A stretch of DNA of 32,000 nucleotides. It comes from Candidatus Scalindua sp. GTDB taxonomy: Bacteria > Planctomycetota > Brocadiia > Brocadiales > Scalinduaceae. Positions 354 to 21,479 of this stretch are shown here, piece after piece. The translations under genes were made by a program, and so were the position numbers. Every line of letters begins with the position of its first letter. The stretch's first letter is position 1. Where the stretch lies: the NCBI GenBank assembly GCA_031316235.1, contig JALDRA010000001.1:2670001-2702000 (forward strand). The letters run 5' to 3'. Below the pieces are notes generated by a model. It made no database searches. It was not told the DNA's origin and saw nothing but the letters and a program-made list of their open reading frames with translations.

Positions 354-372
354 TCAAGAATGTGGAACGCCG

Positions 373-3238: not shown

Positions 3239-3329
3239 AGGCTTCTCAGAATTTTTTATTATTTGTGTTGTTCAAAAAGTCGTATTTCATGAAGGCGTTA
3301 TCTGTTGTGAAACATCTGGAGAAGGTTCT

Positions 3330-4424
3330 GTGCTATACAGTTGGGTTTATTATCTACACAACCATTTTTCTGAACTTGAAATAATAAAGTACATATCATT
3401 CCGGGCCGGTCTTGCCGCCTTTACCGCTTTTTTAATCAGCGTGTTTATCGGGGGCAAGATAATAAAAATGCTGAAAAAGTATAAGGTCTCAGAAGATACG
3501 ACAAAAACAGATTCTGTGAGATTAAGAGAACTGCATAGTGACAAAAAAAACATCCCTACAATGGGAGGTGTTATTATGCTGATATCGATAATCGGCTCTA
3601 CTCTGCTCTGGTGTGACCTGGTAAATATTTATATAAGAATTGTATTATTTGCAACCGTGTGGCTTGGTGCTGTGGGTTTTGTTGATGACTATATTAAATT
3701 GAAGCACAAAGATGCTTCCGGCATGTCAGGCAGATCTAAACTTATCTTTCAATGCGGTCTGGGACTTATTCTCGGTATTGTATTGTATTTTCATTTCAAG
3801 AATATTGATGACGGCACAAAACTGATCATACCATTTTTCAAAGGGCTTAAGCCCGAACTGGGGGCATTTTATGTGTTAATGGTGATGTTCTTTGTAGTAG
3901 GGATGTCAAATGCTGTCAACATTACCGATGGTCTTGACGGGCTGGCTATTGGATGCGTTGTAATTGCAGGACTTGTGATTACCCTGGTGGCGTATGTTGT
4001 AGGGAGGGTTGACTTCAGTAGTTATCTGCAGGTGCCTTATATCCCCGGGTGCGGAGAATTAAGTATCCTGTGTGCAGCGTTGGTTGGTGCCGGATTGGGT
4101 TTTATGTGGTTTAATTGTTTTCCGGCACAAGCCTTTATGGGGGATACGGGCTCACTTCCATTGGGTGGCATACTGGGTATAGTTGCCATAATTGTAAAAC
4201 TTGAGCTCTTTGTTTTTTTTATTTACAGTATTTTTATTGTAGAAGCACTTTCAGTGGTATTGCAGGTAGGGATATACAAGATCTGGAAAAAAAGGGTCTT
4301 TCTCTGTGCACCGTTACACCATCATTTTCAGTTTAAGGGATGGCCGGAAACAAAGATCACGGCAAGATTTTTTATTATTGCCGCAATAATGGCACTCTTG
4401 AGCTTGATTACTATAAAATTATGA
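3330..4424 (+). CDS. mraY: Phospho-N-acetylmuramoyl-pentapeptide transferase
   Basis: Polytopic membrane protein with MraY motifs NAVNITDGLDGLA, GDTGSLPLGG and APLHHHF. GTG start at 3330 preceded by GGAGAAGG. Confidence 0.92.
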   Translation: MLYSWVYYLHNHFSELEIIKYISFRAGLAAFTAFLISVFIGGKIIKMLKKYKVSEDTTKTDSVRLRELHSDKKNIPTMGGVIMLISIIGSTLLWCDLVNIYIRIVLFATVWLGAVGFVDDYIKLKHKDASGMSGRSKLIFQCGLGLILGIVLYFHFKNIDDGTKLIIPFFKGLKPELGAFYVLMVMFFVVGMSNAVNITDGLDGLAIGCVVIAGLVITLVAYVVGRVDFSSYLQVPYIPGCGELSILCAALVGAGLGFMWFNCFPAQAFMGDTGSLPLGGILGIVAIIVKLELFVFFIYSIFIVEALSVVLQVGIYKIWKKRVFLCAPLHHHFQFKGWPETKITARFFIIAAIMALLSLITIKL

Positions 4425-5563
4425 AAGCCATCAAAAGTCAAGCAGTTGTACCATATACAGAAAATCGTGCCCTGGAACCGGTTAACGTTATCTTATACCT
4501 TATTACGACGCTGCTTGTAGTGGGGATAATTATGGTGTACAGTACGAGTTCGGCAAAACTTATAAAAGGCGGTGATGCCCAGAATCTCGTCTTCATGAAG
4601 CATGTTTTGTGGGTAATCTTTGCTTTTCTGGGTATGTTAATCATGATGAGGGTAGATTATCATTTCTGGCAGAACTATAGCACCGTAATCCTCGGAATTT
4701 CCGTAGTCTGCCTTGTCGCCGTATTAATTCCAGGAGTGGGATCAGTTATTAATGGTGCCCGCAGGTGGATACGATTTGGTTCCTATTTTGGTGTCCAGCC
4801 ATCTGAGTTTGTAAAACTTGCAATGATCATATTTGTTTCAAGTTATATAGCAAAAAACCAGGGCAGTATGTCGGATTTTGTTAAAGGTTTTGTTCTCCCT
4901 CTTGTGATAATTGGCGGTGTCTCACTGCTTGTCCTTGTTGAACCGGATTTCGGTACAACGTTATTCATCATGTTTGTCTCACTGATACTTGTGATTGTCG
5001 GAGGAACGAGAATTGTCTACTTTGTTTTCACCTTGATGGCCGCGGTCCCATTTATTTATGAAAGTATATATAAAATTAAACCTTACCAGATGAAAAGAAT
5101 CCTGGTTTTTCTTGATCCCTGGAGAGACCCCCAGGGAGATGGCTATCAAATAGTACAATCATGGATTACCCTTGGATCAGGCGGGATCTCTGGTTTGGGG
5201 TTAGGCGAAGGGAGACAGAAATTGTTTTTTTTACCTGTCAGTAGCAGTGATTTTATCTTCTCTATAATAGGCGAGGAGTTTGGATTCATCGGCACTTCAA
5301 GCATTATCATCATGTTTGGCTTGTTGGCATGGTATGGGATCAGGGTCAGTAAGCAGGCTCCGGATATGTTTGGTTCTCTGCTTGCTTTAGGAATAACCCT
5401 CACGATCGCTTTACAATCAGCCATGAATATTGCTGTTGTTACCGGGGCAATACCGACAACGGGTATTCCTCTTCCATTCATCAGTACCGGGGGTTCATCA
5501 CTGTTTTTATCGTTATTGGGGATGGGTATGCTCTTAAGTATTGCAAAACAATCAAGAACTTAG
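4421..5563 (+). CDS. ftsW: SEDS-family peptidoglycan glycosyltransferase / lipid II flippase FtsW (FtsW/RodA/SpoVE)
   Basis: Multi-TM protein with EPDFGT, WITLGSGGISGLGLGEG, SDFIFSIIGEEFGF and PLPFISTGGSS. ATG 4421 overlaps the mraY stop in an ATGA junction. The track ORF starts at 4340 inside mraY. Confidence 0.88.
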   Translation: MKAIKSQAVVPYTENRALEPVNVILYLITTLLVVGIIMVYSTSSAKLIKGGDAQNLVFMKHVLWVIFAFLGMLIMMRVDYHFWQNYSTVILGISVVCLVAVLIPGVGSVINGARRWIRFGSYFGVQPSEFVKLAMIIFVSSYIAKNQGSMSDFVKGFVLPLVIIGGVSLLVLVEPDFGTTLFIMFVSLILVIVGGTRIVYFVFTLMAAVPFIYESIYKIKPYQMKRILVFLDPWRDPQGDGYQIVQSWITLGSGGISGLGLGEGRQKLFFLPVSSSDFIFSIIGEEFGFIGTSSIIIMFGLLAWYGIRVSKQAPDMFGSLLALGITLTIALQSAMNIAVVTGAIPTTGIPLPFISTGGSSLFLSLLGMGMLLSIAKQSRT

Positions 5564-5576
5564 CAATAACCTTCCA

Positions 5577-6782
5577 ATGAGAACAGGGGAAAAAGAGTCT
5601 TCTTTTTTGAAAGTGATCTTCGCCGGTGGCGGTACCGGCGGTCATTTAATGGCGGGGATAAGTATTGCGGAGGAAATATCCTCTCAGTTTCCTGATGCAG
5701 GTATTGTATTTTTTTGTACTGATTTGAAGAGAGAGGCCGGATACCTGGAAAAGAGCGGATACCGGATAAAACAGATCAGAGCACGGAAACTCACATCTTT
5801 GCGTCACGTACCAGCATTCCTCTTCGTTTCTACCATTGGGCTTGTCTCTTCCTTCATCCATATTGCAGCGATTCGGCCTGATATGGTTGTCGGCCTGGGA
5901 GGGTATGGATCGGTCTTACCGGTTGTTGCTGCATATTTCTGCAGAGTTCCAATTGTCCTGATAGAACAGAATAGTATTCCCGGCAGAGCTAATCGAATGC
6001 TGGCAGGAGGAGTGGATGCGATTTTATGTCATTGGGAGAAAACGGCAAAGTTGTTTAAAAAGTCAAAATCAATACATGTTACCGGTATTCCCGTACGGAA
6101 AGATATCATAGGAAATACATCTGAGAAGGAGTACGAAAAATTCGGTTTTGTCAGTCAGGGAAAGATTTTACTTATTATGGGCGGCAGTCAGGGGGCACAA
6201 ACAATAAACAGGGTTTTAGTGCAGTGCCTGCCAGAACTAAAAAAAATGATTCCGGAGTTGCAAATTATTCATTTAACAGGTAAGCTTGGATTCTGTGAGG
6301 TGAAAAGGGTGTATGACAAAATGGGGATTCGGGCCTTTGTGTCGGAGTACTTTGAAGACATCGGCCTCATCTACAGGATAACTGACCTGATAATAAGCCG
6401 TTCCGGGGCAAATACTGTTGCGGAAATTGCTGAAGTTGGAATTCCCGCAATCCTGATACCATATCCTTATGCTACTGATAACCATCAGTATTGGAATGCA
6501 CACGAACTTTCCCGGAACGGGGGTGCCATAATCATAGAACAAAAAGAGCTGAATCCGGAGATGATAACAGAAATAATAGTTCGTTTACTTGCAGACAGGG
6601 AAAGATTGCATGAGATGAAAGCTCTTAGTAAAAAACAGAGCAAGCCTTTTGCTGCTGAAAGGGTTGTTGAGGGAATTCTCCAGACACTGGCGGGAAAGAA
6701 ACAGGGGGCAGGTCTAATTTTATCAGAGCGAAACAGAAAACGAAAAGAAAATGAATCTTACAACACAAGACACTTATCATAA
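5577..6782 (+). CDS. murG: UDP-N-acetylglucosamine--N-acetylmuramyl-(pentapeptide)-PP-undecaprenol GlcNAc transferase
   Basis: N-terminal GGGTGGH, GGSQGA and SRSGANTVAE motifs of glycosyltransferase family 28. Start is uncertain: ATG 5577, or TTG 5541 overlapping ftsW. Basic C-terminal tail of about 30 aa. Confidence 0.88.
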   Translation: MRTGEKESSFLKVIFAGGGTGGHLMAGISIAEEISSQFPDAGIVFFCTDLKREAGYLEKSGYRIKQIRARKLTSLRHVPAFLFVSTIGLVSSFIHIAAIRPDMVVGLGGYGSVLPVVAAYFCRVPIVLIEQNSIPGRANRMLAGGVDAILCHWEKTAKLFKKSKSIHVTGIPVRKDIIGNTSEKEYEKFGFVSQGKILLIMGGSQGAQTINRVLVQCLPELKKMIPELQIIHLTGKLGFCEVKRVYDKMGIRAFVSEYFEDIGLIYRITDLIISRSGANTVAEIAEVGIPAILIPYPYATDNHQYWNAHELSRNGGAIIIEQKELNPEMITEIIVRLLADRERLHEMKALSKKQSKPFAAERVVEGILQTLAGKKQGAGLILSERNRKRKENESYNTRHLS

Positions 6783-8349
6783 ATCACAGAATCAGCATTA
6801 CCAAAACCTTCTTCATTATGATCGTGAACAGGAGAAAAATGTCTATTTTATAGGAATCGGTGGTGTGGGTATGAGTGCAATTGCGAAGATATTGATGGAT
6901 GAGGGGTGCATCGTGTCTGGTTCGGATCCGGAATGTACACCCATTACGCATAACCTGAGGGAGAAGGGTGCAAAGATTTATACGAAACAGGATGGTAACA
7001 GCCTGGATCACTATACAAATCTGGTTATAGCTTCTGCGGCGATAAATGAAAGTAATCCGGACCTTGTCAAGGCAAGGAAATTAGGGCTGAAGGTGGTCAA
7101 ATACTCTGAATTTCTGGGCTCATTAATGAAGGATAGACGGGGCATTGCGGTGAGCGGTACACATGGTAAGACTACCACAAGCGCCATGATATCAACAATT
7201 CTCAAGAAGTCTGGTCATGAACCTACATTTGTAGTGGGGGGTGATATTGTAGAGATAGGAGGTGGTTCCTGTGTTGGAAAGGGAACTCTTTTTGTTGCGG
7301 AGGCGTGTGAATATGATAAGACATTCCTGAACCTGTCTCCACAAATTGGAGTTATTACGAACATTGATGAAGACCACCTGGATTACTATAAAGACATAAG
7401 GGGTATAACAGATGCCTTTTCGGAATTTGCCTCCCTGATACCTGCAGATGGAATACTGGTTGTAGATGGCGAGGATGAGAATATAAAGACGGCTATTAAA
7501 AATGCAGGATGCCGGATCTCCCGGTACTCAGTAGTTTCCGCGCGGGTTAATACACAAATGGCTGATGTGCCGGACTCTTTTTCGTTTTGTACGATACCAG
7601 GCGTCATCATGGACGAATCAGCTGGTGGCATGCAGGGTAAATCAGAGTCGAAATGGCTGGCAGTTGTGTACAGTTTTGATAAGACTGAGAGTGTTTTCAG
7701 CGTATATAATGAGAGTGGGTTTTTTGGTAATTTTTCTCTTCAGGTACCCGGGATACATAATGTAAAAAATGCACTTGCAGCAATTACTGTCTGCAGCCAC
7801 ATTGGTTTACAGGCCGAAGTTATCCAGAAGGCATTCCAATCCTTCAAGGGTGTCAGCCGGCGATTTGAAATCATCAGCAATGAAGACGGTATTACCATAA
7901 TTGATGATTATGCCCACCATCCTACCGAAATAAGAACGACATTAGAAACGGTTAGAGCTGTCTATCCTTCACAACAGGTTACGTGTGTGTTTCAACCTCA
8001 CCAGTATAACCGTACAAGATTTTTCTTAAAAGAGTTTGCTGCGTCACTCAGCCTTGCCGATCGGGTAATCCTGACCGATATTTATGCAGCAAGAGATTCC
8101 GGTATTGATAAGGCCTCTGTCAGTTCATTGGATCTTGTACGTGAATTGCTCGAAATGGGTGGTAACGTTCAGTATATGAAAAGCATCTCAGAGATTGTAA
8201 ATGAATTACCCATTAACGCAAAAACAGGGGATATTATTTTGACGATGGGAGCGGGGGATATCTGGAAAGCCGCTTATGGTCTGAGGGATTTTTTCAAAAA
8301 GAAACATGATAACCCGAACGAAGGCAGACGACAGCTTATTTCAACGTGA
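6751..8349 (+). CDS. murC: UDP-N-acetylmuramate--L-alanine ligase
   Basis: FIGIGGVGMS N-terminal fold motif, P-loop GTHGKTTTSAM, DDYAHHPTE. Overlaps the murG end by 32 nt. Carries an internal extra segment (see findings). Confidence 0.9.
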   Translation: MNLTTQDTYHKSQNQHYQNLLHYDREQEKNVYFIGIGGVGMSAIAKILMDEGCIVSGSDPECTPITHNLREKGAKIYTKQDGNSLDHYTNLVIASAAINESNPDLVKARKLGLKVVKYSEFLGSLMKDRRGIAVSGTHGKTTTSAMISTILKKSGHEPTFVVGGDIVEIGGGSCVGKGTLFVAEACEYDKTFLNLSPQIGVITNIDEDHLDYYKDIRGITDAFSEFASLIPADGILVVDGEDENIKTAIKNAGCRISRYSVVSARVNTQMADVPDSFSFCTIPGVIMDESAGGMQGKSESKWLAVVYSFDKTESVFSVYNESGFFGNFSLQVPGIHNVKNALAAITVCSHIGLQAEVIQKAFQSFKGVSRRFEIISNEDGITIIDDYAHHPTEIRTTLETVRAVYPSQQVTCVFQPHQYNRTRFFLKEFAASLSLADRVILTDIYAARDSGIDKASVSSLDLVRELLEMGGNVQYMKSISEIVNELPINAKTGDIILTMGAGDIWKAAYGLRDFFKKKHDNPNEGRRQLIST

Positions 8350-9187
8350 TGTTTCTCTGCGAAAATATACTTCTTTCAGAACGGGAGGAGCTGCTGAGTT
8401 TTTTGTAGAGCCGGAGAGTGTATCAGAGCTGATGAAGGTGCTCCGGTTTTGCAAGAGAGAGAAAAAAAAGATTTTTATACTCGGTAACGGAAGTAACATT
8501 CTTGTTCATGATGACGGTGTTGAAGGTGTGGTCATTTATCTGGGAGGGAATTGCTTTAAACAGTTACATAGATACGGGTTGCGTGTTTGTTCCGGAGCGG
8601 GAGTGAGTCTTGTCGGACTGCTGAGGAAAGCAGCCGGGTGGGGTCTGGGCGGTTTAAGCAGCCTGGCTGGGATTCCGGGGAGTGTTGGCGGGGCTGTAGT
8701 AATGAATGCCGGTGGGAAATACGGCAGTATCAGCGAAAATATCAACTCGGTAACAACGGTCACCTTTCATGGCGAAATAAAAAAGCTGGAACGTAAAGAG
8801 ATCGGCTTTCAATACCGTGGATGCGGCCTCCGGGAAGAGATAGTTATTGAGGTGGAATTTCTGCTGAGAGAATCCGAAAAAGAGAGAACCTTTGAAGAAA
8901 TGAACACTATTTATAAAGAGAAGAGAGAAAGTCAACCTCTGGGAACGTTAAATGCCGGTTGTATTTTTAAAAACCCTCAAGGCTTCAAGGCTGCTGAACT
9001 TATTGATAAAGCGGGTCTGAAAGGGGTAAAAGTTGGCGGCGCCATAGTCTCACCAAAACATGCAAATTTTATTATTAATAGTGGAGATGCTACCAGTAAT
9101 GATATATTGGAGCTCATACAAGTGATAAGAAATAGTGTCAGAAAAAAATATAATGTTATATTAGAGACCGAACTGCATATTTGGTAA
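8306..9187 (+). CDS. murB: UDP-N-acetylenolpyruvoylglucosamine reductase
   Basis: FAD-binding PCMH-type motifs YTSFRTGGAAEFF, ILGNGSN and AGIPGSVGGAVVMNAGG, then C-terminal AGCIFKNP. Overlaps the murC end by 44 nt. Confidence 0.9.
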   Translation: MITRTKADDSLFQRDVSLRKYTSFRTGGAAEFFVEPESVSELMKVLRFCKREKKKIFILGNGSNILVHDDGVEGVVIYLGGNCFKQLHRYGLRVCSGAGVSLVGLLRKAAGWGLGGLSSLAGIPGSVGGAVVMNAGGKYGSISENINSVTTVTFHGEIKKLERKEIGFQYRGCGLREEIVIEVEFLLRESEKERTFEEMNTIYKEKRESQPLGTLNAGCIFKNPQGFKAAELIDKAGLKGVKVGGAIVSPKHANFIINSGDATSNDILELIQVIRNSVRKKYNVILETELHIW

Positions 9188-9217
9188 AAAAGGTTCTTTA
9201 CAAAGGTGAGAGCAGGA

Positions 9218-10192
9218 ATGGCTGACAAGAAAATAATAGCGGTATTAATGGGAGGTGTATCTCCAGAAAGGGAGATTTCTCTCCTCTCTGGTCAGGCAGT
9301 CTCGCATGCCCTCAGGAAGGCCAATCACAAGGTCGTTGAGATAGTCGTAAACGACTGTTTAGTTAACGAAATTGATGATCATGAGGTAGATGTGGCATTC
9401 ATTGCTCTTCACGGTTGTTTTGGCGAGGATGGGGGAATACAGGAAGTTTTAGAATCAAAGCAGATTCCCTACACGGGCTCGGGAGTTGGTGCGAGCAGGC
9501 TTGCCATAGACAAGGTGAAATCAAAGGATGTCTTTAAAAGGGAGAATATTCCAACTCCCGATTATTGTGCTGTATCAATGAAGCTCAGTATGTCAGAAAT
9601 TATCGAGAGTGTTGAAAAAGTAACATTGCCTGTTGTTGTCAAGCCGACAGGAGCCGGTTCAAGTGTCGGCATATCCATGATAGGGACATATGATGAATTG
9701 TGTGAGGGAGTGGCTTATTCTCGTTTATATGGCGGGCAGGTTCTTGTTGAAAAATTTATTGAGGGTCGGGAATTGACGGTTGGTATACTCAACGATCTGC
9801 CTTTACCGGTAATTGAAATAAAAACTGCATCACTCTTTTATGACTATGATGCGAAATATAGAGATAAGAGAACTCAGTACATTATCTTGAAATCAGCCGA
9901 TAGAGCAGGTGAGAGATCGTTGCCTCACTCTACTTATACCAGGGTGCAGGAGCTGGCAATGGAGGCGCACAAAAGCCTTGGCTGCCGAGATTTTTCCCGT
10001 GTAGACCTTATCCTGGGCAAGGGGGGAGAAATATACGTTCTTGAGGTGAATACAATCCCTGGATTTACCGAGAGAAGCCTGTTCCCGAAAGCAGCCGGTG
10101 CACAAAATATTGATTTTATCGAGTTGTGTAATACGATTGTGAGAAATGCATTAAAACCCGCCATGAAAGACCTCTCGGCTGTGTGTCCGTAA
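9218..10192 (+). CDS. ddl: D-alanine--D-alanine ligase
   Basis: ATP-grasp enzyme with IAVLMGGVSPEREISLLSG, ALHGCFGEDGGIQ and EVNTIPGFT. ATG 9218 is preferred over the in-frame GTG 9206 used by the track. Confidence 0.9.
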   Translation: MADKKIIAVLMGGVSPEREISLLSGQAVSHALRKANHKVVEIVVNDCLVNEIDDHEVDVAFIALHGCFGEDGGIQEVLESKQIPYTGSGVGASRLAIDKVKSKDVFKRENIPTPDYCAVSMKLSMSEIIESVEKVTLPVVVKPTGAGSSVGISMIGTYDELCEGVAYSRLYGGQVLVEKFIEGRELTVGILNDLPLPVIEIKTASLFYDYDAKYRDKRTQYIILKSADRAGERSLPHSTYTRVQELAMEAHKSLGCRDFSRVDLILGKGGEIYVLEVNTIPGFTERSLFPKAAGAQNIDFIELCNTIVRNALKPAMKDLSAVCP

Positions 10193-10288
10193 TTCATAAA
10201 GATACCTCGGGGCAGGAAATGAATCATATCGAAAGGCAGCAGTCACGGAAAACCAATTTTATCGAAACAAATAAGAAGCCCTGCAATA

Positions 10289-11215
10289 ATGAAAAGTTTA
10301 CTTAAGCATCATTACGCTACTGTAATAGATGGTATAAAGATACGTTTGGCACCATTGCAACCTTTCCGTGCGAAGATTCAGAAAACAGTCTCTCTCTGTT
10401 TGTTGAGACTTGTAATTGTGATGGTAATGGTTATGATTGTTCTGTGGTTGGTGAAATCAACATGGTTCTATTTCACAAATCAATGGATTTTTTTTGTGAG
10501 TCCTGCAACCTTTACGTTTAATTCACCAAACTGGGTGACTGACAGCTTGATTGAGAAGATGAGAAATATTGAAGGGTTGGAAACCAGGTACAATATATTT
10601 GAAAAGGATCTGACAAAAAAGATTGGAGAAGTGTATGGGGAATCACCGCTCATCTCCCAGGTTTTTTCTATTAAAAGAAGATTGCCAAATACGATAGAGA
10701 TAAGACTGGAGCTGCGCAGACCGATCGCTGTCGTTAAAAGTAAATCCAGGGAATATTTAATTGATAGAGACGGCGTAAGGCTTCTTGATAATCTCTATAA
10801 GTATCCTGAAAAGGAAGGGCGACCAATTTATATAAGGGACAACAGGCGGTTGCGAGTTCCGGAATACGGGGAAGAATGGGAAATGAATTCTGTCAGGGTA
10901 GGGTTAAATCTTTTGAACTATCTGAGACACAATAAGATAGATACACTTTTAAAGATTGCAACCATTGATGTGTCTCATGTTGTTGAGAAAATAAGCAACA
11001 GGGGGCGGAGCAATATCATCTTATGGACAGAAAAAGGAACTATGATAAAATGGGGAAGCCCTCCATCATCCAGGCAATTAATGGAACTTTCAAATTACGA
11101 GAAGCTGCAGAACTTACTCAGTGTTGCAAATGAAGAGGGTACCGATCTGTCAAATCTTGAGTATGTAGACGTGAGATGGAAAACTCCGGTTGGCAAAAGG
11201 ATCGATATTCAATAA
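10289..11215 (+). CDS. ftsQ: Cell-division protein FtsQ-like (N-terminal cytoplasmic tail, one TM helix, POTRA domain)
   Basis: Hydrophobic segment LCLLRLVIVMVMVMIVLWLV, followed by a POTRA-like region (ISQVFSIKRRLPNTIEIRLELRRPIAVVKS..YLIDRDGV). Canonical position after ddl. Confidence 0.75.
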   Translation: MKSLLKHHYATVIDGIKIRLAPLQPFRAKIQKTVSLCLLRLVIVMVMVMIVLWLVKSTWFYFTNQWIFFVSPATFTFNSPNWVTDSLIEKMRNIEGLETRYNIFEKDLTKKIGEVYGESPLISQVFSIKRRLPNTIEIRLELRRPIAVVKSKSREYLIDRDGVRLLDNLYKYPEKEGRPIYIRDNRRLRVPEYGEEWEMNSVRVGLNLLNYLRHNKIDTLLKIATIDVSHVVEKISNRGRSNIILWTEKGTMIKWGSPPSSRQLMELSNYEKLQNLLSVANEEGTDLSNLEYVDVRWKTPVGKRIDIQ

Positions 11216-11500
11216 GCGCCATTTCTGTTGTATCCGCAAATTTTACTGCCTCTTTTTCACATCTTCTGACCTCACGGAGTTCTTTACCGCTTAATCCCTG
11301 TAAAAAGCCATCGATCGTTCCCGGGCACCACTTGTCTACTGTTTTCCGATGAGGTGTAGCACATTTAGTATGGGAGAGCAAAAAAAAAATTCAGGGGCCA
11401 TTATGACGTAACTTATGGAATTAAAAATCTTTGCGATCATAAATGTTGTGTTTAAATGGAGGAAGAGTACAATATTTTGTATATTTGACGATAAAAATAC

Positions 11501-11528
11501 TTGACATTCTGTAGGTAATTTGTATAGT
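11501..11528 (+). promoter_or_regulatory. Sigma70-like promoter candidate (TTGACA-16 nt-TATAGT)
   Basis: TTGACA at 11501-11506 and TATAGT at 11523-11528, in a 470-nt AT-rich spacer. Would give a leader of about 150 nt before ATG 11690. Confidence 0.45.
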
Positions 11529-11689
11529 ACTGCCTGTTATGCCTTACTTCTTTAGTCTCATTTTCGGTATATCGTTTATCTCGATTAAGTATTCTAGGAA
11601 AGGAGGTGTGATAGGGGGCTTTTATTAATCTTTTTACCTGTTTAAAGAATATATTTGTCGGTGCTATTTTATTTGAAAGGGAGGTTTTG

Positions 11690-12157
11690 ATGGTAGCAGT
11701 ATCAACTTTAAGGGAAAAAACAGATGTATGTGACGCAGTAGAGAGAAGTGTTTCGATTTTTATAGAGGCGGTGGAACTGTCTTCTGAACTGGAAATAATA
11801 GGTACCTCATTTCCGGAAAATGCGGATGGCAGCCGGGGAGAGGAAGTCTTTGTGATGAGGGATTATACAAAGGCTGAAGGTGTTGATGGTGCGTATGTTG
11901 AGGTGTCGATCGCTGAAGTTGTGGAAAAGGTTACCGATTTTGACAGGGCACAGGAACTTTTGAGGGTTATCAGTAATGATAGATCTTCGATTGTTCTTAA
12001 TGGGATTACAAGAATTGTAGGGTACTATTCAAGAGTAAATAACTGGAATAAGTCAAAGGTAGGGGAATTGAGAGATAGATCAAGCGGAAGTTACGGTCTT
12101 ACGAGAGAAAAACCTTGCTTTCAGGAAGAACGGTTAAAAATGATAGACTCTTTGTGA
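11690..12157 (+). CDS. Stand-alone NrdD-C-terminus-like (glycyl-radical-type) protein, 155 aa
   Basis: C-terminal ITRIVGYYSRVNNWNKSKVGELRDR matches the pattern I know from class III RNR tails (R-[IV]-x-G-Y ... [WF]-N-x-[GS]-K-x-x-E-x-x-[DR]-R). The preceding GAYVEVSIAE...LLRVISNDRSSIVLN resembles the last NrdD barrel strands. The Cys4 Zn-ribbon that normally sits between them is absent. SD AAGGGAGG at 11677-11684 lies 5 nt before the ATG, and a terminator follows the stop. Confidence 0.6.
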   Translation: MVAVSTLREKTDVCDAVERSVSIFIEAVELSSELEIIGTSFPENADGSRGEEVFVMRDYTKAEGVDGAYVEVSIAEVVEKVTDFDRAQELLRVISNDRSSIVLNGITRIVGYYSRVNNWNKSKVGELRDRSSGSYGLTREKPCFQEERLKMIDSL

Positions 12158-12220
12158 CGTGAAGGGTCGGGGGTTGTTTAATACGTGAGAGGGGACGCTC
12201 TCTTATGCCAATAGTCGGGA

Positions 12221-12255
12221 AAGGCTTATAAGGTAAATCCTTATAGGCCTTTTTT
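12221..12255 (+). terminator. Rho-independent terminator after the NrdD-tail-like gene
   Basis: 13-bp stem (AAGGCTTATAAGG / CCTTATAGGCCTT, one G-U pair), 5-nt loop TAAAT, then a run of six T (12250-12255). Confidence 0.75.
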
Positions 12256-12441
12256 GTTGATCATTTACTCTCTCTTCATTGATGTGCTGTTTTTTTATCG
12301 GGAGATTACTGGAGGAAGGGTTTTTACCTGTTGCGGAAGCAATTATACCAGACAAAGCAGGAAACTATACCTTGACTATAAAGTATAACTTTGTTACGAT
12401 CGACAGTTCGGCTGCTCTCTACAATGTTTTTGTTTACCATA

Positions 12442-12498: not shown

Positions 12499-14394
12499 AT
12501 GTTAACTCTTGGGATAGATATAGGTTCATTGTCAACAGATGCTGTTTTATTGAATGATAAAAAAGAAATTGTATCGTATGAAGTAATTGCTACAGGTGCC
12601 AGCAGTAAGAAGGCATGTGATAAGATATACAATCAAATCTTGAAGGTGACAAATCTGGATGCCAAGGATATTGATTATGTAGTTGCAACTGGATACGGGA
12701 GAATCAAAGTTCCCTTTGCGGATGAGGTTGTGACTGAAATTACCTGCCATGCAAGAGGGGCAAATTACTGTTTTCCAAGCGCGAGAACGGTCATAGACAT
12801 CGGAGGGCAGGATAGTAAGGCTATTAAACTTGATGCGAAAGGTAATGTACTTGATTTTTCCATGAATGATAAATGCGCAGCTGGGACCGGAAGGTTTTTG
12901 GAAGTCATGGCCAGGACGTTGGAGATAGACCTGGATGATATGGGAGAGCTCTCACTTAAAGGAACCGACAGTGTCTCTATCAGCAGCCTGTGCACTGTTT
13001 TTGCTGAATCTGAAGTTGTCTCTTTAATAGGCGCTGATCATAAAACGGAAAACATATGCAAGGGGCTGCATGTTTCCATAGCCAAAAGAGTCTCTGCGCA
13101 AGCGAAAAGAGTTGGTTTGGAAGAAGATGTGATCATGACAGGAGGTGTTGCTAAAAACATAGGAGTCGTACGTGAGCTGGAGAAAAAACTTTCCTGTTCT
13201 ATCAAAATACCTGACGAACCACAGATAGCCGGTGCCTTGGGAGCGGCACTCATAGCTTTGGAGAATGCCCTTTCCCGAAAAAAAGCAGACAAGGTTGTTG
13301 AAAAGGAAAAAGTTTCAATTGCAGATGTGAAGCTTGATGATGATGAGAGGCCTAAAATCGGTTATTTCTGCACCTATACGCCAGTCGAAATAATCAGGGC
13401 AGCGGGGTTCCATCCAGTCAGGATAAAGGGTGAAGAGGGGGACAATTCCTCAAATGACGAATTGCTTTGCAACAATATCTGTTCATATATAAAGACGGTT
13501 GCGGACAGAAAGGTGTCCGGAACCCTGGATCAACTTGAAGGGGTGGTATTTACCAACTCCTGCGACGGTATGCGTAGACTGTACGATGCTTGGGTGAGAA
13601 TAGACAATGGCAGTAAGTTCAACTATATTCTGGATATACCTAAAAACAGTGATGACGCTTCAGTGCTCTATTTTGCGGATTTAATAAAGACATTTAAAGA
13701 GCGGCTTGAAAGTTTTTATAAACTGAAAATAGATATTGAGGACATTAATAAGAGTATTTCCCTGTACAATGAGGTGAGAGACAAGGTAGCGTTATTTCTT
13801 CAAAAACAATGGGAGGGTTACGTCGGATACTCTGGTTATGAAATTTACAGCTTGTTAAAGAAGGGCATAAATGCAGTGCCTGAAAGATTTAATGATTACG
13901 TGGGTTCTCTGACCTCCCTCATGAAACAGATAGGGGATGTTCCCGAGAATAAATCTCAGCCAAAACTCTTGATATGGGGAAGTATATTAGAAAATGAAGA
14001 TATAATAAAGATAATTGAGGATGCAGGTGCCCGGGTTGTTTTAGATGATTTGTGTACGGGAAGCAGGTTTTTTGATAAAAAAGTCGAGATAACGGGTAAC
14101 CCCTACCAATCGATATCGGAGAGGTATTTGAGGAAATCACCATGTTCCAGGATGGTTAACGTTTTTGAGAGAATTAGAAATACCATCTCTCTCATAGAAA
14201 AAAGAGCGATCCATGGTGCAGTTTATCACACCCTGAAATTTTGTGATCACACGCTATATGATTATCCCTTGGTAAAGCAGGAGTTCACAAAGAACAATAT
14301 CCCTCTTCTTCATATAAACTGTGATAATAGTTCGAAAAGTGAAGGTCAAGTCAAGACCAGGATAGAAGCGTTTATTGAACAGCTTACTACCTGA
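12499..14394 (+). CDS. Fusion protein: HgdC/BcrAD-BadFG-type ATPase activator domain (aa 1-255) plus 2-hydroxyacyl-CoA dehydratase / benzoyl-CoA reductase BcrBC-family (HGD-D) domain (aa ~285-631)
   Basis: N-terminus: GIDIGSLSTD, ATGYGR, VIDIGGQDSKAI, NDKCAAGTGRFLE, CTVFAESEV, TGGVAKN, GALGAA. The two conserved Cys fall at positions 126 and 165, matching the cluster-bridging Cys spacing of HgdC. C-terminus: KIGYFCTYTPVEIIRAAGFHPVRI, FTNSCDGMRR, DDLCTGSRF, HTLKFCDH and a ...KTRIEAFIEQL ending typical of HGD-D proteins. Confidence 0.85.
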   Translation: MLTLGIDIGSLSTDAVLLNDKKEIVSYEVIATGASSKKACDKIYNQILKVTNLDAKDIDYVVATGYGRIKVPFADEVVTEITCHARGANYCFPSARTVIDIGGQDSKAIKLDAKGNVLDFSMNDKCAAGTGRFLEVMARTLEIDLDDMGELSLKGTDSVSISSLCTVFAESEVVSLIGADHKTENICKGLHVSIAKRVSAQAKRVGLEEDVIMTGGVAKNIGVVRELEKKLSCSIKIPDEPQIAGALGAALIALENALSRKKADKVVEKEKVSIADVKLDDDERPKIGYFCTYTPVEIIRAAGFHPVRIKGEEGDNSSNDELLCNNICSYIKTVADRKVSGTLDQLEGVVFTNSCDGMRRLYDAWVRIDNGSKFNYILDIPKNSDDASVLYFADLIKTFKERLESFYKLKIDIEDINKSISLYNEVRDKVALFLQKQWEGYVGYSGYEIYSLLKKGINAVPERFNDYVGSLTSLMKQIGDVPENKSQPKLLIWGSILENEDIIKIIEDAGARVVLDDLCTGSRFFDKKVEITGNPYQSISERYLRKSPCSRMVNVFERIRNTISLIEKRAIHGAVYHTLKFCDHTLYDYPLVKQEFTKNNIPLLHINCDNSSKSEGQVKTRIEAFIEQLTT

Positions 14395-14584
14395 TCAGAG
14401 AATGCTTCGCGTACTTTGCGGCCGAGCAAAGGGTACGGTCCTGCAAGGTGAGACCAGCAATCCTCCTGGGTGCAGTGTATCCAGCCGTTTCGATGTTTTG
14501 CTCTGTTGGCTTCACTCCCCTGATTCCTCAATTCCAGAAACTTGAAACATGACAGTATTTTATTAATGACACAATAACAAAGCT

Positions 14585-15862
14585 ATGCTGAGTATAAAGA
14601 AATCAAAGGACAATTTAACTCGAAAACTCGCTCCCTTTTTTTTAAAAGAGCTCCTGAGAATTCTCACTATTTATTCGAAGATAACCCTCAAGGGGCTTGA
14701 TAATAACCACATCGATGCCTTTAAATACCTGTCTAAATATGTAATTGAACACCATTTTCATGCATACAAATACGGTTCTATCTGGACAACCCTCTTTGTC
14801 CCCTCGGAAATTCTTTTTGCTATGAAATTGCCCAACTTTTCATTGGAGATAGCAGCAGCTCTGTGCGCAAGGTATGGAAAAAGTGCGCAGGGGTTTGCAG
14901 AAGCAGATCTGTTTGCGATTCCGACTGACGTCTGTTCATTTCATAGGGCTGGAATAGGTCACGCCTTTACAGGGTTTTACCCTCAACCAAAGTTCCTTGT
15001 CGGGACAACTACTATCTGTGACAGTAACTTGAAAACAATTAAGATCTGTGAATCTGAAACAGGAAAAGAGAGCCTTATTATAGACGTTCCCTATGAAATG
15101 AGTGATTACTCTGTCAAATATCTGGCAGATCAATTAAGAAATCTGACTAAATGTTTAGAAAAAGTTTCCGGGAAAACGATGGAGAAAGATTCTCTCAGAA
15201 GGGCGATTGATCTATCCAATCAGGCGAGGGAAAAAATGATAGAAATAAATCGGGTGAGAGAGGATCCTTTATCTCCCCTCATGGGACAGGACTCCCTTGG
15301 ATTAATGCTGCCAAGCCACCTTTTAATTGGTTCAACGTATGCGGTAGATTTCTATTCAAAACTGCTGGAAGAGCTGAAGGAGAAGATCGCAGCTAAAAAA
15401 AGAGAAGGTGTGAAGGAAGAAGAGAAGATTAAGATTCTCTGGCTTGAACTCAAGCCCTATTTCTGTTCAGATATCTTTGATAAGATTGAAAGTGCACGAA
15501 ATGTTAAAATCGTCTTCGAGGAGATAAATCATGTGTACTGGGAGAAATTAGATCCTGATAAACCTTATGAAAGCATTGCCCGCAAGTTGATTTCAAATCA
15601 CAACAATGGGCCGTTAGAAAGAAGATTGGATGTGATAAAGATGTTATCGAAAAATTATCATATAGATGGTATAATTGCTTTTTCCACATGGGGTTGTAGA
15701 AGAAACAATGCCGCAATACCTACCATAAAAAAGGAGATGAACAGGGAGGGGTATCCACTCTTAAATCTTGATGGAGACTGTGTTGACGACAGTAATTATA
15801 TGTCTGGGCAGATTGCAACAAGGATTGAAGGTTTTCTTGAAATGCTGGGAGTCAGAAAATGA
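14585..15862 (+). CDS. 2-hydroxyacyl-CoA dehydratase-family (HGD-D, HgdA/BcrC-like) subunit
   Basis: IWTTLFVPSEILFAM, TDVCSFHRAG, TTTICDSNLK, IIAFSTWGCRRNN, LLNLDGDCVD and an ...ATRIEGFLEML ending. Same strand as the fusion gene, 190 nt downstream. No obvious SD before ATG 14585. Confidence 0.8.
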   Translation: MLSIKKSKDNLTRKLAPFFLKELLRILTIYSKITLKGLDNNHIDAFKYLSKYVIEHHFHAYKYGSIWTTLFVPSEILFAMKLPNFSLEIAAALCARYGKSAQGFAEADLFAIPTDVCSFHRAGIGHAFTGFYPQPKFLVGTTTICDSNLKTIKICESETGKESLIIDVPYEMSDYSVKYLADQLRNLTKCLEKVSGKTMEKDSLRRAIDLSNQAREKMIEINRVREDPLSPLMGQDSLGLMLPSHLLIGSTYAVDFYSKLLEELKEKIAAKKREGVKEEEKIKILWLELKPYFCSDIFDKIESARNVKIVFEEINHVYWEKLDPDKPYESIARKLISNHNNGPLERRLDVIKMLSKNYHIDGIIAFSTWGCRRNNAAIPTIKKEMNREGYPLLNLDGDCVDDSNYMSGQIATRIEGFLEMLGVRK

Positions 15863-17040: not shown

Positions 17041-17982
17041 ATGACAGCTCTCGTTTACGACGATATTTATACAAAGCATGATACCGGTTTTCAGCATCCA
17101 GAGAATTCTCTAAGGATAACAAATACCGTAACATATCTGAAATCAACAGGTATCTGGCAAAAACTGACTGTTGAGAAGCCTCGTGCTGCAACAATTGAAG
17201 AAATTGCCGCCGTACATGGCACCTGCCATATTGAACAAATTGAGAAGCTTGCCAGAACCGGAGGTGGTTACGTAGACCCTGACACATATGTTTCGCCTTT
17301 TTCATATGATGCCGCTCTGTATGCAGCCGGGGCACCGCTTACGGCTATTGATGTTATAATGAAAAGAGAGATAAATAATGCCTTTTGCCTCATCCGGCCG
17401 CCAGGCCATCATGCCACGCCGACGAGGGCAATGGGTTTCTGTTTATTTAATAACGTATCCATAGCTGCGAAGTATCTTCAAAAAGAATACAATCTTGAAA
17501 AAATTGCAATTATTGATTGGGACGTACACCATGGTAATGGGACGCAGGATACATTTTATGAAGATCCTTCAGTGTTGTATTTTTCAATCCATAGATATCC
17601 ATTCTATCCCGGTACCGGCAGGGATAGTGAAACAGGAACAGGTAAAGGGGCCGGCAGCACAATAAATGTTCCTCTATCCCATGATACTACTTCAAAAACA
17701 TATATGAGTATCTTTGAGGAGATACTTCAAAAGGATATTAAACTATTCAAACCGAATTTTATCCTCATCTCATCCGGTTTTGATGCATATTACCTCGATC
17801 CTATCGGTGGTTTAGATCTTGGAGTTTCTGAATTCCGTATCCTGACAGAAATTACACAAAAAATCGCTAACGAGTGTTGTGAGGGGCGAATTGTTTCTTG
17901 TTTAGAGGGTGGATACCACGTGTCAGATTTGCCAAGATGTATAGAAGCACATCTAAATGGCCTGAATAGTAATCAAACGTAA
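17041..17982 (+). CDS. Histone deacetylase-family amidohydrolase (AcuC / acetylpolyamine deacetylase-like)
   Basis: RPPGHHA, DWDVHHGNGTQ, SSGFDA and LEGGY motifs of the Zn-dependent arginase/deacetylase fold. Confidence 0.85.
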   Translation: MTALVYDDIYTKHDTGFQHPENSLRITNTVTYLKSTGIWQKLTVEKPRAATIEEIAAVHGTCHIEQIEKLARTGGGYVDPDTYVSPFSYDAALYAAGAPLTAIDVIMKREINNAFCLIRPPGHHATPTRAMGFCLFNNVSIAAKYLQKEYNLEKIAIIDWDVHHGNGTQDTFYEDPSVLYFSIHRYPFYPGTGRDSETGTGKGAGSTINVPLSHDTTSKTYMSIFEEILQKDIKLFKPNFILISSGFDAYYLDPIGGLDLGVSEFRILTEITQKIANECCEGRIVSCLEGGYHVSDLPRCIEAHLNGLNSNQT

Positions 17983-17999
17983 CCGTAAAAAACCTGAAT

Positions 18000-18275
18000 T
18001 TATGGCGTGGCTGTTTTTAGTTTGTTGAGAACTTTCGCTAATCTCGATTTTTTTCTTGAGGCAGTTTTTTTGTGGATAATTCCTTTCGCTGCTATCTGGT
18101 CCAACCTCTTCGTAGTTAACGAAAAGTGCTTTTCTGCATCAGCCATATTTCTGGCCTGAACAGACTGTACAAATTTCTTAATCTGGGTTTTTAGAGCAGA
18201 TTTGTGGCTTCTGTTCATCATCCGGCATTTACTGTTTTGACGGACCCGTTTTTTTGCAGATTTGTTTATGGGCAT
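18000..18275 (-). CDS. rpsT: 30S ribosomal protein S20
   Basis: MPINKSAKKRVRQN... is a typical S20 N-terminus in a basic 91-aa protein. The internal ATG at 18275 is preceded by GGAAGGA. The 139-aa track ORF is an upstream artefact. Confidence 0.88.
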   Translation of the reverse strand: MPINKSAKKRVRQNSKCRMMNRSHKSALKTQIKKFVQSVQARNMADAEKHFSLTTKRLDQIAAKGIIHKKTASRKKSRLAKVLNKLKTATP

Positions 18276-18366
18276 AAATAGTTCCTTCCCGGTTTCAATT
18301 GATTTCTGAAGATTTTTGTTTCCATCATACTCTCTCCAATAATAGGAAAGAGTAGTTAATCGTGAA

Positions 18367-18395
18367 AGTCTAAGAAATAGGGATGCAGTTGTCAA
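18367..18395 (-). promoter_or_regulatory. Sigma70-like promoter candidate for rpsT (TTGACA-17 nt-TAGACT on the minus strand)
   Basis: Minus strand reads TTGACA (18395-18390), a 17-nt spacer, then TAGACT (18372-18367). Sits about 90 nt upstream of the rpsT ATG. Confidence 0.4.
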
Positions 18396-18521
18396 CAAAA
18401 AAACAAAAAACCCTTGCATTTTCAGTGGTTTGTATTATATACTGAATCCTGTTAACTTGACCTTTTTATTGGGTATATGTCATGTTCAGCGGTTATATAT
18501 ACCCTCTTTGAATCACTCTCT

Positions 18522-19037
18522 ATGGAAGTTCTTATTTTCCCAAATCCGGGTTTGAAATGCAAGGCGAAATCAGTAGAAGAGATCGACGAAGAGATCTGTA
18601 AAACCGCTGATGCAATGTTAGATACCATGTACGATGCCTGTGGAATCGGTCTTGCGGCAACGCAGGTCGGGATCCCCAAACGCATCGTTGTTTTGGACAT
18701 TGAGGGTAATAAAGCAGGAGAAAGGGTTTTTATTAATCCGTATATTGTTGAACAGCGAGGTGAGATAATTGAAGAGGAAGGTTGCCTGTCGTTTCCAGGT
18801 TTGGTAGGTATGGTAATGCGTTCCCAACATGTTACGGTTATTGCTTTTAATCTCAAAGGCGAAAGATTGGAAATTGAAGCTGACGGATTATTGAGCCGTG
18901 CCTGGCAGCATGAAATCGATCATTTAAACGGCACTCTTTTTATAGAAAAAATGACACCTGCAAGCATGATTGCAAATAAACAGAAGATGAAAGAATTCGA
19001 GCTTGCGTATCAAGAAAACAATGCCAACGTCCGTTAG
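18522..19037 (+). CDS. def: Peptide deformylase
   Basis: GIGLAATQVG, EGCLSFPG and QHEIDHLNG (the three PDF motifs). ATG 18522 (MEVLIFPNP...) preferred over the track start at 18477. Confidence 0.92.
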   Translation: MEVLIFPNPGLKCKAKSVEEIDEEICKTADAMLDTMYDACGIGLAATQVGIPKRIVVLDIEGNKAGERVFINPYIVEQRGEIIEEEGCLSFPGLVGMVMRSQHVTVIAFNLKGERLEIEADGLLSRAWQHEIDHLNGTLFIEKMTPASMIANKQKMKEFELAYQENNANVR

Positions 19038-19063
19038 GCCAGACAATTTGAGAAGAAGCGTTT

Positions 19064-20014
19064 ATGAATGTTATTTTTATGGGGACACCGAGCTTTGCTG
19101 TTCCAAGTTTAGAATTACTGGAAAAATCAAAATATAAGATCGTAACGGTTATCACCCAAACAGACAAACCGGCCGGACGAAAACGGCAACCTTGCCCGCC
19201 GCCTGTCAAGGAGGCGGCCCTGGATTTTGGAATCCCTGTAATTCAGCCACAAAATGTAAACGACAGGAGTGTTGTCAATCAAATTGCAGGATACAGTCCG
19301 GACATCATTATTACGGTTGCTTTCGGTCAGAAGATCTCTTCTGAGATATTAAATTTGCCAAGATATACATGCTTAAATATTCACGCCTCATTGCTTCCTA
19401 AATATCGTGGTGCTGCACCCATTAACTGGGCAATTATCCGGGGAGATAAGGAGTCGGGGATTACGTCCATGGTGATGCGAGAAAAAATGGATGCCGGTGA
19501 GATTATTATGCAAAAAGCACTGCAGATACGAGATAATGAAACTGCAGGGGAATTGGGGGACAGGTTAAGTATCCTTGGTGCAGAACTTTTAATGGAAAGT
19601 ATCGGGCAGATAGAAGCGGGAGACGCAAGATATACGAAACAGGATGAACGGCTGGTTACCTATGCACCAAAACTGAAAAAGAGAGACGGGCTTATCTATT
19701 GGAATCAGAATACCAGAGATATTCACAATTTTGTAAGAGGTGTGAATCCCTGGCCTGGAGCGTATACAACGGTAACACATAATGAAAAAACGGAAAGAAT
19801 CATAATCCTGGAAACTGAGTGTGACATACAGTCTGCCGCAGGTTCAATGGATCCTCCCGGTACTGTTTCAGATGTTTCTGATCGTGGTATCAGCATAGCG
19901 ACAAAGAATGGTTCTATTTGGATAACTCGGGTTAAGCCCGAAGGGAAACGAGACATGAAGGCTGCAGCGTTTTCACGGGGACACAACGTTAAAGCTGGTG
20001 ATCTGTTTACGTAA
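19064..20014 (+). CDS. fmt: Methionyl-tRNA formyltransferase
   Basis: MNVIFMGTPSFAV, NIHASLLPKYRGAAPINWAI and a C-terminal Fmt domain. Classic def-fmt pair. Confidence 0.92.
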   Translation: MNVIFMGTPSFAVPSLELLEKSKYKIVTVITQTDKPAGRKRQPCPPPVKEAALDFGIPVIQPQNVNDRSVVNQIAGYSPDIIITVAFGQKISSEILNLPRYTCLNIHASLLPKYRGAAPINWAIIRGDKESGITSMVMREKMDAGEIIMQKALQIRDNETAGELGDRLSILGAELLMESIGQIEAGDARYTKQDERLVTYAPKLKKRDGLIYWNQNTRDIHNFVRGVNPWPGAYTTVTHNEKTERIIILETECDIQSAAGSMDPPGTVSDVSDRGISIATKNGSIWITRVKPEGKRDMKAAAFSRGHNVKAGDLFT

Positions 20015-20115
20015 TACCTTTAACGGTATGAAGCTGCCTTTGGGTTTGAAAGAGTGTTTGGATTTCGGGGAACGGAATTTCAGTATAAACCTTCAATAAA
20101 AGGGGTATTGATAAG

Positions 20116-20577
20116 ATGGAAGTTTTGGACAAGAAGCTTGTTTCGCTTAACAATTTAATGACGAAGTTAAGGAAAAAGAAATGCCCGCCTGAGGGATTGC
20201 TACTCCTCTTTCCGCACTGCATTCAAAATTCTAAATGTAAACAAAATATCAAACACGACCTTAATGAGTGCAGGCGTTGTGGAAAATGCAAGGTAAAAGA
20301 GTTATTGGAAGTGTCTGAAGAATATGGTATCAGTGTAGCGGTTGCGAGTGGTGGTAGAATTGCGCTGAAAAGGGTTATGGCTGAAGAGGTTCAAGGGGTG
20401 GTTGCGATTGCCTGTGAAAAGGAACTGCGGGTGGGGTTGATGGCGGCAATGCCAAAAGCGATTGTTGCCGTTCCCAATTTGAGGCCATACGGTTACTGCG
20501 TCAACACTGATGTATACCTTGATGATGTCTTAAAGGCTGTTAAGTGGTTTACGAGGGACCACAGAAAGAATCCCTGA
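20116..20577 (+). CDS. DUF116-like Cys-rich protein (short form without N-terminal TM region)
   Basis: LLLFPHCIQNSKC, CRRCGKCKV, ASGGRIA and VVAIACEKEL match my recollection of the DUF116 (PF01976) pattern. SD AAGGGG upstream. Confidence 0.6.
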   Translation: MEVLDKKLVSLNNLMTKLRKKKCPPEGLLLLFPHCIQNSKCKQNIKHDLNECRRCGKCKVKELLEVSEEYGISVAVASGGRIALKRVMAEEVQGVVAIACEKELRVGLMAAMPKAIVAVPNLRPYGYCVNTDVYLDDVLKAVKWFTRDHRKNP

Positions 20578-21452: not shown

Positions 21453-21479
21453 AATAATAACCTTTTTAGTAGATTTCCG

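Follow-up and report, generated by a model that had tools for sequence, protein, structure and literature searches.

Class III ribonucleotide reductase (RNR) is defined in textbooks by a glycyl radical at the C terminus of its catalytic chain, NrdD. What, then, would a bacterium do with a free copy of that C terminus? The question is raised by a small gene at positions 11690 to 12157 (ATG at 11690, stop codon TGA at 12155 to 12157) of a 32,000-nucleotide stretch of a contig from Candidatus Scalindua (JALDRA010000001.1, positions 2,670,001 to 2,702,000), here called the window; the gene and its own signals lie on the + strand. Scalinduaceae are the marine anammox bacteria behind much of the oceanic nitrogen loss. 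The gene encodes a stand-alone protein of 155 amino acids (aa), which in a word-index search was identical to a protein on a 4,149,782-bp Candidatus Scalindua contig. We found that this protein carries a glycyl radical tail of the NrdD type and that the NrdD encoded in the same genome has lost its own radical glycine. We propose that the small protein probably supplies the radical to NrdD in trans.

The tail occupies aa 98 to 143 (positions 11981 to 12118) and consists of the loop GITRIVGYYSR followed by a helix, NWNKSKVGELRDR..G.Y. When a profile of 30 diverse members of the small family was compared with one of 15 planctomycete NrdDs by hhalign, these residues aligned with NrdD residues 768 to 814 at a probability of 99.6% (E = 5e-24). 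The Pfam model NRDD (PF13597) matched aa 103 to 131 at its positions 533 to 560 of 562 (E = 4.4e-5; 22.8 bits, under the gathering cutoff of 26.2), and TIGR02487 matched aa 104 to 131 at positions 552 to 579 of 581 (17.9 bits, against a curated cutoff of 326). BLASTP of the 155-aa protein against the NrdD of Jettenia gave an E value of 1e-14 over an ungapped alignment of aa 71 to 135, weak in its extension back to aa 71. These data bear out the proposal, made earlier from the sequence alone, of a stand-alone homologue whose match is local to the NrdD C terminus. Gly_radical (PF01228), the Pfam family for the C terminus of pyruvate formate-lyase, did not match the 155-aa protein even at E values up to 10.

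The predicted radical site is Gly111, whose codon, GGG, lies at positions 12020 to 12022 within the RIVGY motif, as had been read from the sequence; the segment R108-I-V-G111-Y112 agrees with RVxG[FWY], the fingerprint of glycyl radical enzymes (GREs). In two alignments (A1 and A2), Gly111 and Arg108 are invariant and Tyr112 is nearly so, and R108, G111, N120, S122, K123, E126, L127, R130 and Y135 are invariant in members that share only about 30% identity overall. The block TRIVGYYSRVxNWNKSKxGELRDRxxGxY as a whole is nearly invariant, while the N-terminal domains are only about 30% identical. Strong purifying selection on the gene is evident from the ratios of nonsynonymous to synonymous substitution (dN/dS), which were 0.10 to 0.13 against three orthologues, with values of 0.14 to 0.16 for the N-terminal domain and 0.03 to 0.08 for aa 98 to 155. 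The family is large: the word-index search returned 407 homologues, the best 120 of which are all 143 to 171 aa long, and a profile search of 1.84 billion representatives gave 644 matches, the best 150 being almost all 67 to 207 aa with the motif at the C terminus. The small gene is a real, conserved gene.

Other parts of NrdD are missing from the protein. Its only cysteines are Cys14 and Cys143, so that the four-Cys Zn ribbon before the Gly loop is absent, as the sequence-only reading had stated, the aligned positions being V, F, S and R; the ten-stranded alpha/beta barrel with a finger-loop cysteine was not found either. In the AlphaFold2 model, the N-terminal domain (aa 1 to 97, positions 11690 to 11980) is built of a long helix, three strands and two helices and represents a new fold and family. 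The model shows aa 10 to 100 as a compact domain with per-residue confidence (pLDDT) values of 92 to 98, whereas the Gly loop (aa 103 to 114) falls below 50 and is followed by helices at 121 to 130 and 145 to 154. The loop is presumably mobile on a rigid N-terminal domain, and this mobility fits delivery of a radical, since a loop that visits an activase is expected to be mobile.

The first 60 or so residues had been described as acidic and unmatched, and the 40 or so ahead of the loop as resembling the final barrel strands of NrdD. Unmatched the N-terminal domain is: no match was found in Pfam or, by phmmer, in the Protein Data Bank (PDB), and Foldseek comparison of the predicted structure with PDB and BFVD returned nothing below an E value of 0.01 and no NrdD match. 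It is no unstructured acidic stretch, though, but a conserved domain predicted at pLDDT 92 to 98. Neither did the resemblance to barrel strands hold up, because a profile of aa 1 to 100 (181 sequences) showed no similarity to the NrdD profile (E = 0.68), and only the weak ungapped BLAST extension to aa 71 remains, together with a low-stringency hhalign extension into the domain with weak posterior support. An origin of the domain from the last NrdD barrel strands or from a degenerate Zn ribbon was rejected on the same E value.

Full-length nrdD and nrdG, the obvious partners of such a tail, were sought in the genome. In S. profunda, nrdR, nrdD, nrdG and smc are adjacent and all transcribed, NrdD is present in the proteome and NrdG holds rank 72 in the transcriptome (PMC3655542, supplements); the nrd operon of Jettenia ecosi has the same order. 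The Scalindua nrd locus was recovered in a search with the Jettenia SMC protein, via the syntenic smc, and the gene for the SMC protein (P0463) shares the 4,149,782-bp contig with that for the small protein. In the genome of the window, the locus (L168) reads trmE, nrdR (164 aa), nrdD (799 aa), nrdG (244 aa) and smc, with nrdR-nrdD-nrdG directly upstream of smc, and both genes were thus found. The 799-aa NrdD has ATP-cone and NRDD domains and keeps its barrel, and NrdG is a radical S-adenosylmethionine (SAM) protein. The radical motif of this NrdD, however, is gone, with YGIKKRDSHDKINNW in place of YGISRIVGYFSRINNW. Its C terminus reads ...TISPEFTICTECKRVNPRLVDECSFCGSSNFYGIKKRDSHDKINNWDRSKVEELVNRHRDNYHV..., in which the Zn-ribbon cysteines are present and the segment is one residue shorter, and the matching stretch of the Jettenia NrdD is YGISRIVGYFSRINNWNKSK.

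The same motif has been lost, and replaced by different residues, in S. japonica, Scalindua SCAELEC01, Scalinduaceae FS_1_bin.16 and one other Brocadiales metagenome-assembled genome. The pattern R[IVLC]xGY occurs nowhere in these five NrdDs and no other reading frame encodes the motif, while the four Zn-ribbon cysteines are retained. Related NrdDs of other lineages keep the glycine motif without exception (120 of 120, with [ST]R[IV]xGY in 119 and ARIVGY in one). Within the glycine-less lineage, the bodies of the proteins are 76 to 95% identical, with a proportion of nonsynonymous differences (pN) of 0.02 to 0.11, but the 31-residue former Gly tail is only 13 to 55% identical (pN 0.07 to 0.28). 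In motif-intact NrdDs, by comparison, conservation of the tail equals or exceeds that of the body (75 to 97% versus 70 to 92% identity). NrdG (244 aa, with the motif CNLRCPYC) is intact in every one of these genomes, and in Scalindua strong purifying selection acts on NrdD as well as on NrdG. A glycine-less NrdD and the small gene occur together in three assemblies, namely, the genome of the window, SHMT01 (loci L006 and L171) and JBHICG01 (L012 and L172). The loss of the glycine is a lineage trait and not an assembly error, and in the loci examined from these genomes, no radical site of the NrdD type was found other than that of the 155-aa protein.

A further tie between the small gene and the nrd operon is found in its upstream region. 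Two NrdR boxes lie just 5′ of the −35 hexamer of the gene: box 1, ATCATAAATGTTGTGT, at positions 11436 to 11451, matches ACACWANATNTWGTGT with three mismatches and takes the form ACTATAAATGTTGTGT in Scalindua orthologues, and box 2, GTACAATATTTTGTAT, at 11467 to 11482, starts exactly 31 bp past the start of box 1. Tandem boxes were then counted in 80 related loci from GTDB genomes (1.03 Mb); the list of these loci, like that from IMG/VR below, was limited to 80, and the distributions drawn from them describe a sample and not a census. Fifty-two pairs were found, 44 of them at most 420 bp upstream of small genes, five upstream of nrdR and three elsewhere, which amounts to a roughly 15-fold enrichment at small genes versus the rest of the loci. 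The 44 pairs cover all 27 Scalindua loci, Jettenia, other Brocadiales and unrelated Planctomycetota; the five pairs 5′ of nrdR, where nrdR precedes a full-length nrdD, serve as a positive control. When 14 Scalindua upstream regions were aligned, the boxes and the promoter hexamers were the only well-conserved blocks. Comparable boxes overlap the TTGACA of the Scalindua nrdR-nrdD-nrdG operon itself, and NrdR is encoded in the genome of the window directly 5′ of nrdD (164 aa, with Zn_ribbon_NrdR and ATP-cone domains). These conserved tandem boxes place the small gene in the NrdR (ribonucleotide reductase) regulon. Taken together, the homology of the tail, the invariant Gly111 motif, purifying selection, the common NrdR boxes and the presence of nrdD and nrdG sustain the view that this free radical tail is tied to class III RNR.

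How could the two proteins work together? Selection on an activase implies a substrate for it, just as a conserved RNR barrel must receive a radical from somewhere, and on these grounds we consider it likely that NrdG puts a radical on Gly111 and that the small protein delivers it to NrdD in trans. Under NrdR control, the small gene would be expressed along with nrdR-nrdD-nrdG. Within the flexible RIVGY loop, Gly111 would then lose a hydrogen atom to the radical-SAM activase NrdG, the small protein would dock on NrdD so that its loop enters the barrel, and radical transfer would generate a thiyl radical on the finger-loop cysteine of NrdD. Since the 799-aa NrdD has lost its own glycine, the Scalindua enzyme would consist of a catalytic barrel and a separate radical carrier, and the small protein would be obligatory. 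On balance, albeit with less assurance, we favor the view that Scalinduaceae possess a two-component class III RNR and that the same family, which phages have also captured, serves other Planctomycetota as a backup. Alongside the intact NrdD of Brocadiaceae such as Jettenia, the small protein may act as a GrcA-like backup, a role that is plausible given that Jettenia ecosi has an intact NrdD and the small gene in one assembly. A backup able to act in trans would explain how the cis glycine came to be lost, and this ability probably allowed the Scalindua lineage to lose it.

The sequence-only reading had gone further and likened the protein to GrcA/YfiD, as a spare part for class III RNR. The link to class III RNR stood, but the spare-part role does not suit Scalindua. 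A pure spare part of this kind would replace the C terminus of NrdD after oxygen has cleaved the chain at the glycyl radical, and the stand-alone, monocistronic copy of a parent-enzyme tail, the coexistence of intact NrdD and small gene in Jettenia ecosi and the life of anammox bacteria at oxic-anoxic interfaces all speak for it. In the genome of the window, in three other Scalinduaceae and in one other Brocadiales genome, however, NrdD is without the radical glycine, so there is nothing for oxygen to cleave or to replace, and the NrdR boxes on the small gene are a signal of deoxynucleoside triphosphate (dNTP) supply. We thus regard a pure spare part as unlikely; in Scalindua the small protein is more likely the regular radical-bearing subunit. 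More doubtful still is a decoy, buffer or regulator of NrdG, one that takes up or holds the radical or titrates the activase but stays outside NrdD throughout. In its favor, the Gly loop readily suggests itself as a substrate for NrdG and the small gene never adjoins nrdD, but conservation runs about 25 residues past the short stretch that an activase would require, through the helix NWNKSKxGELxDR..G.Y that is also present in NrdD. A decoy would moreover leave NrdG without a productive substrate in Scalindua despite the strong selection on NrdD and NrdG, and the shared NrdR control suggests a positive role in dNTP supply.

Several observations weigh against delivery in trans. In 139 loci (61 genomic and 78 viral), nrdD, nrdG and nrdR never adjoin the small gene. 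The glycine-less NrdD keeps its Zn ribbon and a recognizable C-terminal helix, INNWDRSKVEEL, its tail still evolves below the neutral rate (pN 0.07 to 0.28), and this tail would have to shift aside for a foreign loop. Two other RNR-like genes are present in S. profunda, both almost untranscribed. Finally, a serine is conserved at the glycine-aligned position of the four Scalindua NrdDs (DSH, ASQ, DSH and GSH), which raises the prospect that NrdD bears its own radical on a residue other than glycine and that the small protein is a mere accessory. Ser, Thr and Ala radicals do exist in PFL-like enzymes, that is, relatives of pyruvate formate-lyase (PFL) (PMC11528403). Those aminoacyl radical enzymes keep RVx[AST][FWY], though, whereas the Scalindua NrdD reads KRDSH, with neither Val nor an aromatic side chain and one residue deleted; no part of NrdD evolves faster than this segment, and there is no Ser at that place in the Brocadiales NrdD of locus L173. 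We rate this explanation slightly below the decoy. Lowest of all, and very improbable, is that the small protein serves another enzyme, for example, the neighboring pair resembling 2-hydroxyacyl-CoA dehydratase, or is a decaying nrdD fragment. In all the Scalindua loci examined, BcrAD_BadFG/HGD-D genes are indeed found downstream of the small gene, but this neighborhood is confined to Scalindua, and other lineages and phages have unrelated neighbors. The 2-hydroxyacyl-CoA dehydratases use ketyl radical chemistry through an ATP-dependent activator and not glycyl radicals, which weakens the dehydratase-partner reading. Decay is excluded by the dN/dS of about 0.1, the hundreds of full-length homologues and the lack of upstream remnants: tblastn of full-length NrdD against the window revealed no other NrdD remnant and no frameshifted pieces, in keeping with the earlier view that the gene is not a decayed fragment.

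The expression signals of the small gene are those that had been noted from the sequence. A Shine-Dalgarno (SD) sequence, GGGAGG, at positions 11679 to 11684 lies 5 nt 5′ of the ATG, and a sigma-70-type promoter at 11501 to 11528 (−35 TTGACA, 16-nt spacer, −10 TATAGT) matches at 11 of 12 positions, both hexamers being kept across the 14 aligned Scalindua upstream regions. A terminator-like hairpin at 12216 to 12258, with an 18-bp stem, a 5-nt loop and a T-run at its end, was absent from the pattern-scanner listing and was found with RNAfold (−23.6 kcal/mol). In the leader of about 155 nt, a purine-rich, strongly SD-like block, AGGAAAGGAGGTG, at 11598 to 11610 is present in about two-thirds of the aligned Scalindua leaders; it sits mid-leader, about 80 nt 5′ of the true start, and no consistent upstream open reading frame (ORF) follows it. 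A riboswitch or other RNA element was considered for this leader and rejected, since an Rfam search of the 155 nt gave no match and the leader is poorly conserved.

Within the window, the small gene lies 3′ of the dcw cluster (murB, ddl, ftsQ) and 5′ of two HGD-D genes. The dcw cluster (positions 373 to 11215; murE-like, mraY, mur ligases, murB, ddl and ftsQ) stops at ftsQ, neither ftsA nor ftsZ being present in the window, and the two downstream genes (12499 to 15862) encode a 631-aa fusion of a BcrAD_BadFG activator with HGD-D and another HGD-D protein of 425 aa, a block that looks like a 2-hydroxyacyl-CoA-dehydratase-like system in an anammox bacterium. In 13 Scalindua genomes (among loci L013 to L032), the small gene is instead directly 3′ of groEL-hsp20-lon on the same strand, where the window has ftsQ; the upstream neighborhood is hence variable and the downstream block fixed. 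Across lineages the neighbors are specific to each (HGD-like, groEL-hsp20-lon, nitroreductase, HAD, Usp, ClpP and AraC), and a functional link to neighboring genes was rejected for that reason. An HDAC-S20-def-fmt-DUF116 block is found just 3′ of the small gene (window positions 17041 to 20577), directly abuts nrdR-nrdD-nrdG in Jettenia (L166) and lies about 2 kb from smc in a Scalinduaceae locus (L172). It may be that the nrd operon and the small gene were neighbors in the past. Elsewhere in the window, two tandem ORFs of about 171 aa (20934 to 21995, minus strand) and a 239-aa ORF (30875 to 31594) had no Pfam match.

Several observations concern the nrd genes themselves. In S. profunda, a "putative ribonucleoside reductase" is encoded beside a "putative SAM radical protein" and a helicase (scal01867 to scal01869), almost untranscribed (PMC3655542, supplement); the reductase and the SAM protein may form a second NrdD/NrdG pair, possibly of prophage origin. 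Between nrdG and smc, the genome of the window (L168, positions 9562 to 9813) encodes an 83-aa, histone-H1-like protein rich in Lys and Ala. Two other Brocadiales lineages have a conserved ORF between nrdD and nrdG (107 aa, L174, positions 4286 to 4609; 123 aa, L175, positions 4658 to 5029), and the NrdD tails there read RLDGY and RVDDY. The two products are 38% identical and had no Pfam match; they proved unrelated to the small family and were rejected as members, and they may represent another kind of accessory protein for class III RNR. Full-length nrdD is followed, in many Planctomycetota and Omnitrophota, by a gene for a CxxC redoxin-like protein of about 87 to 100 aa (L035, L042, L051, L052, L055, L060 and L062). 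The NrdDs so accompanied have an ACCR double-cysteine finger loop that lacks methionine, pointing to a reductant of the thioredoxin type and not of the formate type.

The small gene is also present in viruses. A scan of IMG/VR gave 89 matching stretches, and the 80 loci kept contained 78 small ORFs of 50 to 225 aa with the same tail. The contigs range from 24 to 69% in GC content, and the neighbors include genes for the terminase large subunit, portal, head morphogenesis and holin-like proteins; no planctomycete-type nrdD or nrdG was found within 5 kb of the viral small genes. That genuine phage contigs have the small gene by itself counts in favor of the proposed role. A tblastn search of GenBank phage isolate genomes returned no match, the gene being found only on uncultivated IMG/VR contigs. 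Copies nearest to those of Scalindua share 54 to 63% identity with them, have a GC content of 37 to 46% and possess a common C-terminal extension. In phages, the small gene would be an auxiliary gene that sustains host dNTP synthesis. At many loci (L087 to L094 and L098 to L118), it lies inside the packaging and head module, between portal/terminase and head-morphogenesis genes, and is often followed by small, membrane, holin-like ORFs, an odd site for a gene of nucleotide metabolism. Two viral contigs (L133, positions 384 to 5138; L165, positions 87 to 5117) carry NrdD frames of giant length (1584 and 1676 aa), in which the Zn ribbon and the Gly tail are intact and which probably contain inteins.

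As the sequence-only reading had surmised, no NrdD-type equivalent of GrcA appears to have been characterized: our literature search found neither a radical protein of the NrdD type that stands free nor an NrdD without its glycine described. A 2026 review names formate lyases as the only GRE class with identified spare-part proteins (PMC13450708), and surveys of the RNR family describe the glycyl radical domain only as the C terminus of the catalytic chain (PMC9531940, PMC9669993). Current annotation is misleading on both partners: the 155-aa protein is labeled "anaerobic ribonucleoside-triphosphate reductase" or "hypothetical," and an NrdD without its glycine is taken for a normal enzyme. If our proposal is correct, this would be the first GRE whose radical subunit is obligately separate. 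As a natural intermediate on the way from spare part to subunit, it would show how a repair part turns into a permanent component, and it would constitute a new quaternary design for an essential, ancient enzyme. The small protein, NrdG and NrdD would then make a tractable system for studying how glycyl radical loops are delivered into barrels. The proposal would also bear on the oxygen tolerance and dNTP supply of anammox bacteria in oxygen-minimum zones and would add a new phage auxiliary gene.

The closest known counterparts are GrcA/YfiD, which serves the PFL of Escherichia coli, and Y06I of phage T4. These are likewise small, stand-alone, monocistronic proteins whose C terminus copies the radical loop of a large GRE, and GrcA shares with our protein a presumed activation by the activase of the parent enzyme, action in trans and the existence of phage-encoded versions. 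They differ in that the tail of the 155-aa protein is of the NrdD and not the PFL type, its N-terminal part is a conserved, predictedly folded domain where that of GrcA is disordered, and its gene has tandem NrdR boxes upstream. Furthermore, the parent enzyme in Scalindua is without its own glycine, while a parent with its glycine is found in Jettenia ecosi. Compared with the C-terminal domain of NrdD (PF13597, TIGR02487), the protein has the same pattern, TRIVGY[YF]SR..NWNKSK.GEL.DR..G.Y, and is about 75% identical to planctomycete NrdD tails, but it lacks the Zn ribbon, barrel and active-site cysteines and joins the tail to an unrelated N-terminal domain. Conceptually, placing the barrel and the radical source or other enzyme parts on separate polypeptides recalls class I RNR, whose radical cofactor is on a separate beta subunit, and the class II RNR of Pseudomonas aeruginosa, which is split. 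The chemistry has nothing in common with theirs, since a glycyl radical would be installed by a radical-SAM activase, and the 155-aa carrier probably inserts its loop into the barrel in place of long-range radical transfer. The aminoacyl radical enzymes (Fu et al. 2024) are also GRE-family proteins in which the canonical glycine has been replaced; they keep the fingerprint and a radical of their own, whereas in the Scalindua NrdD the fingerprint is gone in its entirety and a separate protein bears an intact one.

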